The notes under the pieces: generated by a model
Database searches by the model: none
What the model saw: the letters and a program-made list of their open reading frames with translations, nothing else
Told to the model about the DNA's origin: nothing
Shown: one piece after another, positions 1 to 35,503 of the stretch
Numbering within the stretch: position 1 is the first letter of the stretch
How the letters are laid out: each line of letters starts with the position of its first letter
Program-made: the position numbers and the translations under genes
NCBI GenBank assembly: GCA_023231475.1
Contig: JALJEE010003266.1
Location: 1-37,540, forward strand
Direction: 5' to 3'
Length of the DNA stretch: 37,540 bases
Source: Seison nebaliae
Lineage: Eukaryota

Positions 1-66
1 GTGGCCAAGTTAATTAAGAATTTTAAAATTTTCGTTAAAATTTTTTATATATGTTTCAATTTTTAG

Positions 67-1926
67 TAATACAGAATATTTATGTGAAATCAGTGTATCT
101 GATCATTATGGACGGAATACGAACTCGCATATAACAACGGCATTTATCTTAATTCATACGGGTAAAGTGTTGAATGGTATGGTTCCCAAACCAGTGGTGA
201 AGAAGGAAAAATGTAAAAATAAATGGAAAACGGCAATGATTCCAATCCCTTTATTTCTTGGAATGGGTTTCGGATGTTTAGGTGGATTATGTTGTTTTAA
301 GAAACGATGTTGTAAGAAGAAGAAAGATAAAAAGAAAAGTTAAATATTTTATTAAATTTTTTTCTAATAATAAATATTCTATAAATGATTGTAGAAGAGA
401 AAAAAATGATTATAGTAGGAAAGGATGCTGATGGAAATATTGTTGATGAAGATGGTAATCCTCTGGAAGTCAATTCGAAAATGAGGAAAATGTTAAAGAA
501 TCAAGAACGTCTTCAGAAGAAGATTGAAGATAATCCGAAATTGAAACGTGCGACAATTTATGCCATCGAATCCGAAGAACAAGATGGCGAAGTGTTTAGT
601 AGTAGTTGTCATATGTTTGTAAATGGACAAGAGAAACAAGAAGCGTTAAGTAATAAGAGTAATTTATCGCCGTTATATGAGGAATCGAGTGGAATAACTA
701 ATTTCTCTACATTGCCATCTGCAAAAGATGTTGGAATGAATAAAATGATGAATTATAATATGGATCCGAATCAATCAGATCCATCCATGAAATTACAATC
801 GAATATGAATATGTCACATCATGCTATGATGCCAAATGATGGAATTGCTGATATGAGAAACATTGGAGAAAAGAGTCTTAATATGACAGCTGTACTTCCA
901 TCACAACCTCATGTTAAATTACGACCAGTAGAAGGTATGGGTGACAGACGTAGAGTAGCTGGTGGTGGTGGTGCTGGTGGTCCACCTGCAGCCGGAACAG
1001 CAACATTACCCACACGTCAACATCAACATATTCATCCACATCATCAACATTCAAAACAACAACAACATAGTCCTCCACCTTCGCCCAGAAATTCAGCTTC
1101 TTATCTAACACCGATCGAAAATCAAACTTTACCAAACCGAAGAAAAAGTGGAAGAAATTCGAGATTAGGTCGTTTCATTGGAAGAGACAGAAATAAGAAA
1201 TCGACTTTCTTACAAACACCGTCACCTGCTAAAGATAATTTAGCGCCGCCTCCTTTTCATAATATTTATGATAGTGTGGCCGGTGATGAAGGAGGAAGTG
1301 ATATACGAACAAGAAGTAATAACAAAGATAGAAGTACATCATCTAATCGTTTGTCACATATACCGGAATTCCAACTTCCTAATGTAGCGAATAATCAAAA
1401 TCAAAGTCAAAATAGTTCATTCGACTCTCAGCCATCGGTCAATGACCATATGATGTTTAGGAATAGTGCAAAATTGACAATTGGTGATGTTAATCCATCA
1501 GGAGCATATCCTCATACGAATACTCACCAATCAAGAGAAACATCAACTAATCGACCAAAAATGCCACCACCTCCCATACCACCTCCAAGACCTGATAATT
1601 CCAAATCAAAATTTCAAGCACTTCTCCAACAAACCGAATCGTCGTTAGCTGATAATCCACAACCATCTTATTTACCCAGCTACCTCAGACAACAACAACA
1701 ACAACATCATAACGCTCAACCACAATGTATGGTGAATCAATCTCAAAATCAGCCACCACTTCCTTTAAATCGATCGCATATAATGAAAACAGATAAAAAT
1801 ACGGAAAATAGTCGTGTGGATGATCGAGCACCTCTTTGTGATAATTCTCAAAATATGCCGTTATACACTCCAATTGGTAATAGTCAGTATTCTGATCAAA
1901 TTCCACCCGAAGGAATGTTGATATAA
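67..1926 (+). CDS. 3' part of a single-pass membrane protein (possibly cadherin-like) with a long low-complexity cytoplasmic tail; the gene begins left of the window
   Basis: Exon 67-338 reads NTEYLCEISVSDHYGRNTNSHITTAFILIHTG...AMIPIPLFLGMGFGCLGGLCCFKKRCCKKKK, i.e. a hydrophobic helix followed by a Cys/Lys stop-transfer segment. A 56-nt phase-1 intron (339-394, GTTAAA..TAG) joins it in frame to the ORF ending at 1926. A probable upstream intron lies at 9-66. YLCEISVSD..TTAFILI loosely resembles the last strands of a cadherin repeat (weak). The tail has Pro-rich tracts and NIYDSV. Confidence 0.7.
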
Positions 1927-2640
1927 TTCCACATTTATTTTTTGCTTTCCTTAAAAATGTTCATCGGAAATATTTATTTCTTCCAATTAACATCCAATCC
2001 TTCTTGTACAGTGGACTAGGACTGTTCATTGAACCAGCTGATACAAAAGAATCACTAATAATCATTTCATATTCTTCCTCTCATTTCCTACATCTATTTT
2101 TTAAACATGTAAATATTTCTTTGAACTTTCCTCAAAAAATATCAAAAAACTATAAAAAATGTTATTCAACTCATAATTATTTATTCATTATTTTTTTTTA
2201 AAGCAAACAGTATTTTTTTAATCAAAGACAAATACTTCCATAACATTTCATTTGAGGAGAATTTTATAAACAATTCACCTGTGCGAACAATCTCATTGAA
2301 ATCTCTTTCAAATAACACACGAAGAGAATCTTAAACAATTTTTTATTTTTCTTCCTCTATTCCTTTTAATGTTAATAAAAAAAAAAGAAAACAGTTAATT
2401 GTGAATGGAATAAAAGGAATGATGGAGATTGCATTTTGTAAAATAATTTGTGAATGAAAAAATTCGATGAAATAAAATTAATAAAATGAATGTTTGAAGG
2501 AAACGTGAATATTAAGAATAAAAATGAAAAACTAAATAAAATTTAGAAAAATAATTTGGTTTCTCTCTTTCCCTGTAATATATATCAGTTTAATTCGTAG
2601 TAGATTAGTCTAAATTTCCAAATTTCTTTTATCAATTCCA

Positions 2641-33013: not shown

Positions 33014-34065
33014 TATCGTGACAAAGTGAAGGAATTCCCAATTCTTCAGGGGAGGGAAGTGATGAGATTAAATGAATGAATTTAAATTTATTCGTCAATT
33101 ATCGATTCTCATTTCCTTATTATTATTATTTCCATTTAAAATTTATCGAAAACTTTTCCTCTCCTCCACACAATATACATAAACTCTGTCGATGATTCTT
33201 CATATTTGATGTTTCTCCTGATCTATCCAATTTTCAATTATTTTCCACTGGATAATCTGTGATGGAATATCAATATGGAATCATCAGTTACACAATTATC
33301 TTTTAATGATTTTTCTAATTTAATTTTTTTTTGATTTAATGAAGAAAAATATCTTATGAATTTCCTCTATCCTTATATATTGAGCATTCAATGCAACAGT
33401 GAACCAAACTACCTCAATTCACCATTCATCTTTTTCTCCTCAAACATTTTTTTCCTTCTTTCATATTACAAATTTGTATAGAATTCTATTAAACACAAAA
33501 CTGTCCATTTTCTTCATTTTTCGATTATTATTCTATCAAAATTTTTTCGATAAATTTTCGTTCTTTGAGAATTATGATATTTCGATGTTCTGATCGATTG
33601 TTGAATAATTTGAAAATGTTTGCTTCATTCCAAAGATATCATACTTAATAATCAATCACCTCCTCTTCTTCTTCTGAAAAAAGGATTAACCATTTTGAAT
33701 TGATTTAATTTTTCTTTCCAAAAATTTTCATCTTTTTTTGAATTCCGAATGAATATATATTATTCACAATTGAGTAGCGATTTCTCTATTCGTCTCTCAT
33801 TAATCATATATTCAAATCACTTTTTATTAGAAGACACAATTTTATTTTATTTCATCTTAATTAAAACTAAATTTATGAAATCTATTTCCACTTAAACTAT
33901 TATCGAATATAAATCAATCAGACTTGACTCGGTTGAGATGAGAGAAGAGAAAGAAAGATCTACGTCGAAAAAGAAACTAAATTAAAAGAAATTATTAAAG
34001 GGATAGAAATGTAATTAAATGTATTTCGTTCATGACAATTAATGTATTTGAATTTGTTGTGATGA

Positions 34066-35503
34066 TTATAGTTTAGTGAAACCGTCACCAGCATATTGGA
34101 CACTCGATCCCAATTCTTCCTCGATTCGTTTCAATTGGTTATATTTGCAGACACGTTCAGATCGACATGGTGCACCTGTTTTAATTTGTCCCGTGTTCAA
34201 TCCGACGACCAAATCAGCAATGAATGCGTCTTCTGTTTCACCTGAACGATGACTGACCATTACACCCCATTTGTTCGCTTTCGCTAATTGATAACTAATA
34301 AGAGAATTGAATTAAATAAGAAAATTAATGGAATGAACGCAGCGATCGATTCACTGATTGAACCGATTTGATTTACTTTCAACAATAAACAATTACAAGC
34401 TTTCTTGTCAATGGCCGTTTTCATACGATCCACATTCGTTACTGTCAAATCGTCACCAACCAATTGAATCGACATATCTTTTTGCAAAGCACTCCACGAA
34501 TTCCAATCGTCTTGATCGAAAGCGTCTTCGATTGATACGATCGGATATTTGGCAATCATTTCTTTATATAATTTGATCATTTCATCGGAACTCACCTAAC
34601 AAAGAGACGTTATTGGAATATAATAGAAATCTTAACAATTTTACTTGGATCTTTCTTTGGAGCTTTATTGTCCAAATTATATTTGCCATCTTCAAAGAAT
34701 TCAGATGCAGCAACATCCATAGCAATCTTCATTTTTCCAGTATAACCAGCTTTATCGATTGCTTTCATCAATAAATCAAGTGCTATGAAATAAATTTAAA
34801 TAAAAATTAATTTAATTAATAATAATAATAAACCTTCGATATGTCCAAGAATATTTGGAGCGAAACCACCTTCATCCCCAACATTACAAGCGTCTTGTCC
34901 ATATGTGTCTTTGATAACTTTTTTTAAATGATGATAAGTTTCACTTCCCATTTGCATGGCTTGTGTGAAATTCTTTGCACCAGTTGGGAGAACCATGAAT
35001 TCTTGCATAGGTAATCGATTTCCAGCATGTGATCCACCATTTATCACATTGAAACATGGAACGGGCATTCTCACATCTTTGTTCTTTGCCAAATCGGCAA
35101 TATGTCGATAAACTGGAATTCCTTTGAATGCAGCTGCTGCTTTACAACAAGCGATTGATACACCTAAAATTGCATTCGCTCCCAATTTTGATTTATTCTT
35201 TGTTCCATCTAATTTTAACATAAAATCGTCGATTTCTTTCTGTTTATCAACAGCAATTTTTGCATTGATCAATTGTGGACCAATAACATTATTCACATTA
35301 TTCATCGCATTCAATACTCCTTTTCCATGATGAACGTTCTTATCTCCATCTCTCATCTCCAATGCTTCATGGACTCCAGTGGAAGCACCTGATGGTACTC
35401 CAGCTCGAAAGATTCCTCGATCAGTTGTCACATCAACTTCGATCGTTGGATTTCCCCGACTATCATAAATATATCGAGAATGAACTTTTTTGATGGTCGA
35501 CAT
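34066..35503 (-). CDS. ENO: Enolase, 433 aa
   Basis: Exons 35503-34834, 34782-34637, 34595-34339, 34294-34066. [64 protein letters not shown] and [11 protein letters not shown]. Confidence 0.98.

Follow-up and report, generated by a model that had tools for sequence, protein, structure and literature searches.

It was confirmed that the short GT-AG introns in a stretch of the Seison nebaliae genome nearly always start with GTT in place of the animal-typical GTA or GTG. The stretch (the window) is the 37,540-nucleotide (nt) contig JALJEE010003266.1 of assembly GCA_023231475.1, and all counts given here are from this one 37.5-kb contig. Seison is a marine, epizoic relative of rotifers with a compact genome of ~46 Mb, 32% G+C and ~35% of the metazoan BUSCO genes missing (PMC8351084). 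A preliminary description of the window, made from the sequence alone, had reported 45 introns in 13 genes, with 42 GTT, 2 GTC, 1 GTA and 0 GTG donors. The models were rebuilt from three-frame views with the earlier list unused, which gave 43 introns spread over 12 genes, plus 3 genes of a single exon, each model having one terminal stop; the thirteenth model was not found. The introns are 41–417 nt long (median 51), and 43/43 are GT-AG. At position +3 they have T in 40, C in 2, A in 1 and G in 0, and the GTC donors (10674 and 11307) and the sole GTA of the set (10332) stand where they had been placed before. The Wilson 95% interval of the GTT share is 81–98%. When the extra donors of deposited models are included, the 45 donors are GTT in 41, GTC in 2 and GTA in 2. 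The purine at +3 of the major-intron consensus (GURAGU) is seen here in 1/43, and the long fixed donor motif of U12-type introns was found in 0 of the 43 donors.

The excess of T at +3 is larger than base composition can explain. T follows GT in 42% of the intergenic and 51% of the intron-internal cases, and the ratio T:A after GT is 546:314 between genes and 23:7 inside introns (~1.7–3:1 for GTT). The earlier premise that AT bias would favour GTA as much as GTT was therefore wrong, but the conclusion drawn from it holds on the real background, with P=2e-12 (intergenic) and 3e-9 (intron-internal) for all 43 introns. For the 28 introns fixed by homology (T26, C1, A1), the values are P=2e-8 and 3e-6. 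The remaining 15/43 rest on the open frame and not on homology. Another earlier argument, that 11/12 junctions after Lys, Gln or Glu use the A-ending codon, had to be dropped, because 78% of such codons in these genes end in A (P=0.22).

Each donor position was compared with intron positions +7 to +25 (the P values carry no correction for how many positions were compared). At +3, A occurs in 1/43 introns versus 31% in the background, a depletion with P=3e-6. Neither relaxed selection nor AT bias can give this avoidance of +3A, and a changed 5′ splice-site code in Seison is therefore supported. Position +4 is neutral (A18 and T17 of 43, background 31% and 53%), as are +6 to +9. The earlier interpretation is supported in part, as far as the changed code is concerned; its option of lost N6-methyladenosine (m6A) in U6 is weakened, since METTL16 loss goes with +4U and +4 is without signal here. 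Position +5 shuns U (6/43 versus 53%, P=1e-7) and holds A in 23, C in 8 and G in 6 introns; the G count, reported before as 6/45, is still 3-fold above background (6/43 versus 4.7%, P=0.014). The reduced +5G is a relaxation and not a switch, and the clear signal at +5 is the avoidance of U. The exon end carries a weak C-A-G signal at −3 (C, P=0.02), −2 (A in 26/43, P=0.002) and −1 (G, P=0.0025), while −1A is not significant; the −1 counts of A20, G16, T6 and C1, with AG ends in 4/43, are close to the A20, G18, T6, C1 and 5 AG ends given previously. The donor pattern shown by these counts is (c)A(A/G)|GTTn(not T). The donors comprise 23 different hexamers, with GTTAA the commonest start (11/43) and GTTTG in 2/43, and no compensation between −1 and +5 was detected (P=0.36, n=43). 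The acceptors are TAG in 30, AAG in 7 and CAG in 6 of the 43 introns. The AAG acceptors (16%) end at 10374, 10719, 10890, 12293, 24104, 24635 and 31142 and include all three introns of the AK3-like gene; the acceptor −3 position may have relaxed along with +3. A branch-point motif at constant distance was not apparent in the 43 introns.

The placement of the junctions was examined by a donor-blind test, in which profiles were built from non-Seison homologues picked by length from the matches (PSMD14, 45 sequences; enolase, 101; PCYT2, 116; ALG5, 3), and each frame-keeping placement was scored with no preference given to any base at +3. The modelled junction was the best GT/GC-AG placement in 24/24 introns (PSMD14 intron 1 tied with a GC site). 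An open GTA or GTG alternative existed in 5/24 tested introns and scored 6–28 bits below the modelled site. Against placements with any dinucleotide, the modelled site came first in 14/24, within 1 bit in 8 more, and 3–4 bits lower in 2, which are in variable linkers. Outside these four genes there are 19 introns, and of the 18 that are not GTA, 1 has an open GTA or GTG alternative within 21 nt. Removing the 43 introns restores the proteins, as judged by profile placement and by frames of full length. Deposited Seison nebaliae proteins match the exons of enolase, ALG5 and PCYT2 at 100% identity and map uniquely with GTT donors in 20/20; the deposited models are predictions of unknown making and are thus not independent RNA proof. 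In the transcript-mapping table of PMC8351084 (supplement 2), 12 exon/intron length patterns were sought, of which 8 had no match among the 19,906 rows listed, and the 10 listed rows matching the other 4 misfit the neighbouring gene lengths. The transcript gaps of ~41–92 nt in the listed rows fit the modelled intron lengths. Splicing terms sought in supplement 1 gave no match. The DNA runs X1 and X2 cover 9200–25400 unspliced, and X6 and X7 gave no match, which has no bearing on expression.

Canonical-looking donors are present in the window and are left unused in the models. Nine GTRAG sites lie unused within modelled exons. A canonical GTGAGT at 24262..24267 (+) stands 6 nt upstream of the ALG5 intron 4 donor, in frame and with the same acceptor, yet it scores −6.1 bits against GTTAGA at 24268, and the deposited model uses 24268. 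Another canonical-looking donor, GAA|GTAAGTAT at 5928..5935 (+), lies in the modelled last FAM92 exon; this case is model-based and weak. The second GTA donor (GTATTT) is a single case and comes from a 6-codon exon within PCYT2 intron 5 (15800..15817, −) that is known from the deposited isoform P0410; this exon is optional and falls in the linker. In human PCYT2, the same linker likewise contains an optional exon. The ALG5 pair 24262/24268 and the GTA on the optional PCYT2 exon are two single cases that fit an active preference for GTT.

The U1 pairing end and the purine at +3 are nearly invariant in animals. We consider that the GTT donors would be caused by a U to A change, as in Entamoeba, at the U1 base opposite +3 (rough probability 0.45). 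A U1 with A at this position would pair with +3U instead of +3A at donor recognition, in the normal register and with about 6 pairs (exon −2/−1, +1 to +3 and often +5), and the remaining specificity could come from the A-rich exon end and the short intron length. The introns would be ordinary major-spliceosome introns, and the pattern would extend over the genome. The fuller proposition, that the pairing end of U1 (possibly with the base opposite +5) was rewritten while nearly all donors went from GTR to GTT genome-wide, as the first case of splice code and small nuclear RNA (snRNA) co-evolving in an animal, is a tentative one that we put somewhat below even odds.

Duplexes were modelled for the 43 real donors and for 698 GT sites of the same genes that are not used, with the canonical U1 5′ end read from locus L012. 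With the canonical end, the area under the curve (AUC) was 0.63, and the mean duplex energy was −2.19 kcal/mol for real versus −2.03 kcal/mol for unused sites. When only U1 position 6 was changed to A, the AUC rose to 0.83 (−2.84 versus −2.02 kcal/mol), and further changes opposite +4 and +5 gave 0.84–0.87. Because the +3 count itself produces this gain, it can rank the hypotheses but proves none of them and is not separate evidence. The Rfam and transfer RNA scans of the window gave 0 matches, in agreement with the earlier failure to see an snRNA gene there. A scan for U1 with A opposite +3 gave 7 metagenome loci, of which 3 are weakly U1-like and 4 have no Rfam match. The three U1-like genes, with A replacing U at position 6, are at 1047–1187 (−) of L004 and at 3001–3141 (+) of L005 and L008; they score 22–27 bits with Rfam U1, below the cut-off, and lie between protein genes in GC-rich, fungus-like DNA. 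They are possible variant U1 genes for GTTAG donors in another eukaryote. Since they carry exactly the position-6 change, such a change occurs in nature. One viral match was rejected as not U1. Pattern scans gave 5 canonical U1 loci in genome contigs, one of which served as the bait for the DNA runs. Eukaryotic U1 genes were found in five bacterial genome bins (L009–L013, with U2 in L009 as well), where they are host or bystander contamination. Neither the viral contigs nor the genome behind L012 contained comparator genes from relatives.

Several points weigh against the altered U1. When the invertebrate-type U1 bait was used, each of the four window-bearing DNA runs gave one contig with an ordinary animal-type U1 body. 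The bait alignment begins 9 nt before the U1 start, takes in the 5′ end and runs to position 58 (55/67 alike). If this unassigned contig is Seison's and canonical, the explanation fails. The contig has a depth of 5.4 and 15.2 versus 14 and 27.6 for the window contigs in the same runs (0.39–0.55), and its 30-nt upstream flank has 60% G+C, which in our view would make another organism the likelier source. It may belong to another organism, a second strain or one haplotype, and it counts neither for nor clearly against the change. The pattern is known from one contig, with junctions from DNA models and no RNA junctions seen. The precedent is a partial fit, since the Seison donors are degenerate beyond +3 while those of Entamoeba are strict. 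Most lineages with atypical donors keep a canonical U1, according to bioRxiv 10.1101/2022.06.08.495308, and +3 also faces G44 of U6, through a weak non-canonical contact, with SNRNP27 affecting +3 as seen in snrp-27 mutants with shifted +3 preference (PMC11732430).

The last two points, together with the ordinary-looking but unassigned U1, favour another explanation, by which a canonical U1 pairs weakly and +3U is imposed later or by a protein, either because the U6 ACAGAGA box has a different base or geometry opposite +3 or because contacts of Prp8, SNRNP27, U1-C or LUC7 are changed. The ~35% of missing BUSCO genes makes the loss of a splicing factor plausible, which was counted for it. In the literature seen, however, no near-fixed +3U was found to come from such a change, and in the +3U lineage covered by that literature, Entamoeba, U1 is changed. 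The altered U1 was ranked first and the U6 or protein contacts second because +4 is neutral and +6G is absent; the latter explanation, as the main rival, is a possible one, which we doubt on balance. A canonical U1 could also pair in a shifted or bulged register with the U of +2 or +3 looped out, a rare human mode made general. This register has been shown experimentally in human cells (PMC4856993), and both the frequency of GTTAA starts and the tendency of +4A to accompany +5A (P=0.06) are as it would have them. It predicts +6G and +4A, but +6G is seen in 3/43, the background level, and +4A in 18/43 (P=0.14). The bulged register separates real from unused sites with an AUC of 0.65 versus 0.63 for the normal one, and among GTT sites with 0.70 versus 0.74; we regard it as improbable.

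Loss of U6 m6A (METTL16) or of SNRNP27 alone could have moved the donors into a U5-dependent class with A-rich exon ends. The enrichment of −2A would agree with this, and worms mutant in mett-10 show a switch to AA//GUUGU or UG//GUUG sites in individual genes (PMC11347140). Such a loss is expected to turn +4A into +4U, however, whereas +4A remains in 18/43 and U is not enriched, and it leaves the avoidance of +3A unexplained; its chances seem slimmer still. The bias might also be an artefact or a neutral effect: junctions could be misplaced, the T-rich composition could favour GTT, or a single intron-generating transposon family could have supplied introns with a GTT end. In its favour are the 15/43 frame-based introns, the T content of 51% in the introns and the fact that RNA junctions were not seen. 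In contrast, GTT opens 26/28 of the introns fixed by homology (P ≤ 3e-6 whichever background is used), and the donor-blind test agrees. The similarity between intron bodies is at the level of dinucleotide shuffles (mean 17.3 versus 17.1±0.2, maximum 43 versus 33–46), terminal repeats are absent, and junction repeats are 0–2 nt in 41/43, which argues that the introns are not one mobile family. This last explanation is largely refuted by these results and hardly credible.

The closest known system is Entamoeba, where GUUUGU donors are matched by a U1 with ACAAAC (Roy and Bowser, bioRxiv 10.1101/2022.06.08.495308). Both have GT-AG introns with a near-fixed +3U instead of a purine (40/43 in Seison). 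Entamoeba, however, is a protist with few introns and a strict donor hexamer (88–90% GUUUGU), in which +5G is kept and +4 changed, whereas Seison is an intron-rich animal (43 introns per 37.5 kb) whose donors are degenerate past +3, carry no signal at +4 and have a weak +5G. Mastigamoeba has a separate +4 change, and in yeasts, Giardia, Micromonas and Thecamonas +4 is changed while U1 is canonical, according to the same preprint. Some atypical human donors are read by U1 in a shifted or bulged register (Tan et al. 2016, PMC4856993, where Roca and Krainer 2009 is cited) and, like those of Seison, have a +3 pyrimidine after GU, but they are a rare class whose consensus is displaced by one base, and the displaced +6G is absent in Seison (3/43). 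In Saccharomycotina, +4A turned into +4U with the loss of METTL16 and SNRNP27K (PMC10581693; PMC11732430). This is also a lineage-wide donor shift, there tied to a spliceosome part, but it affects +4 in intron-poor yeasts, whereas in Seison +3 is changed and +4 is neutral. The copepod Eurytemora, another animal lineage with a non-standard donor rule, has GA or GG donors in ~12% of its introns (PMC5714493); there +2 is changed in a minority of introns, while Seison keeps GT and has changed the majority +3 base. In a 61-species survey, donor profiles resemble each other and group by lineage.

A donor consensus for Seison or rotifers was not found in the literature, with subscription papers and bioRxiv supplements outside the search, and the excerpts of PMC8351084, PMC10125929, PMC10639083, PMC10599564, PMC13161344 and PMC3033335 give none for Seison or other rotifers. 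The same search found no description of GTT-dominated donors for any animal. GTT codes are known from protists, and a degenerate GTT code in an intron-rich animal appears to be new as far as the search reaches. The co-evolved cases described so far are amoebae; an intron-rich animal with +3 flipped would be proof that a new code can be taken up at thousands of sites. The sequenced rotifer and acanthocephalan relatives make the order (U1 first or introns first) testable. If U1 is canonical, Seison would point to the poorly understood U6 or protein contact that sets +3. Introns of bdelloid rotifers may often start with GTT; if other rotifers share the bias, it would be a trait of the clade and not Seison's own. 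Seison donors will score too low in gene finders and aligners whose training was on GTRAGT.

Pfam matched 14/20 stretches of the models, with FAM92, adenylate kinase, E2, TALE homeobox, Ets/SAM, epimerase, FERM and peptidase M28, and profile positions continue across several junctions. The basis of each intron is given below as profile (donor-blind homologue profile), deposited (mapping of a deposited protein) or frame (open frame, a weaker tier). All intron-bearing genes are on the plus strand except PCYT2 and enolase. For the eight introns of PCYT2 (−), deposited and profile placements are both available: 16527..16584 (GTTGGA), 16379..16437 (GTTAAT), 16173..16216 (GTTGTC), 16054..16105 (GTTCCC), 15531..15947 (GTTACT, 417 nt), 15384..15437 (GTTTTT), 15219..15260 (GTTAAT) and 14876..14919 (GTTAAT). 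Several of these positions presumably match human ones. The same two bases hold for the enolase (−) introns at 34783..34833 (GTTTAT), 34596..34636 (GTTAAG) and 34295..34338 (GTTCAT), and for seven of the eight ALG5 introns, namely 23854..23898 (GTTTTT), 24059..24104 (GTTTAA, AAG acceptor), 24152..24198 (GTTAAA), 24268..24312 (GTTAGA), 24406..24468 (GTTTTG), 24702..24756 (GTTAAT) and 24909..24957 (GTTCAT). ALG5 intron 6 (24580..24635, GTTAAT, AAG acceptor) is the sole open GT/GC-AG pair and is also in the deposited model. That model has an extra 510-nt 5′ intron (GTT) at 23230–23739 (+) and 51 more residues; the lengths of homologues suggest that ALG5 would start at 23782 and not at the deposited upstream start.

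In PSMD14, intron 1 (11307..11354, GTCATA) is placed by the profile, tied with a GC site 9 nt upstream. Intron 2 (11562..11614, GTTTCT) is best by profile with a GTG alternative at −20 bits, intron 3 (12045..12095, GTTCAT) is placed by profile, intron 4 (12197..12293, GTTTAT, AAG acceptor) is the sole open GT/GC-AG pair, and intron 5 (12357..12430, GTTAAA) is placed by profile with a GTG alternative at −15 bits. The AK3-like gene has AAG acceptors throughout: intron 1 (10332..10374, GTAAAA) lies between Pfam ADK positions 1–39 and 42 onwards, intron 2 (10674..10719, GTCTCT) between ADK_lid 1–21 and 22–36 with no open alternative, and intron 3 (10839..10890, GTTAGG) rests on Pfam and frame. FAM92 intron 1 (5328..5374, GTTTCT) separates Pfam FAM92 positions 20–92 from 96–224, and intron 2 (5765..5818, GTTAAT) is frame-based. 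For E2, intron 1 (17658..17708, GTTAAA) has no open alternative, intron 2 (17956..18006, GTTGCC) lies between UQ_con 6–87 and 90–134, and intron 3 (18148..18332, GTTTGA) is frame-based. In the TALE homeobox gene, Homeobox_KN 1–28 stops at the junction of the intron 18710..18764 (GTTTAT), which has no alternative; the intron of the epimerase-like gene (20787..20856, GTTTAA) also has no open alternative. The ETS gene has frame-based introns at 29265..29313 (GTTAGT), 31097..31142 (intron 3, GTTTTT, AAG acceptor) and 32021..32100 (intron 6, GTTTAA). Its intron 2 (30961..31006, GTTCAT) has no open alternative, after intron 4 (31501..31546, GTTTCA), without alternative, the Ets domain begins at profile position 5, and intron 5 (31749..31796, GTTTCT) is within the Ets domain. 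Two introns of a 5′-partial membrane-protein gene (9..74, GTTAAT; 339..394, GTTAAA) and that of a small secreted-type gene (9586..9632, GTTTGC, with an open GTAA alternative 15 nt upstream) are also frame-based.

A codon-bias scan of the remaining window gave no further clear gene except a possible small one at 17246–16842 (−), which was omitted. It is made up of a pair of short segments that look coding and lie upstream of PCYT2; the first is followed by a GTT site, there is no clear acceptor, and the pair is possibly the thirteenth model of the preliminary description. Two genes beside intron-rich neighbours appear to be intronless, namely the FERM gene at 2641–4746 (−) and a glutaminyl-cyclase-like gene (peptidase M28) at 12644–13783 (−). 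A single-exon frame at 36377–37405 (+) has 342 codons and no Pfam match; its best atlas match (0.75) is a lead only. At 19748–20010, low-depth contigs (3–4) in the DNA runs X1 and X2 carry several substitutions over the stretch, as would be expected if the samples contained a second, rarer lineage.

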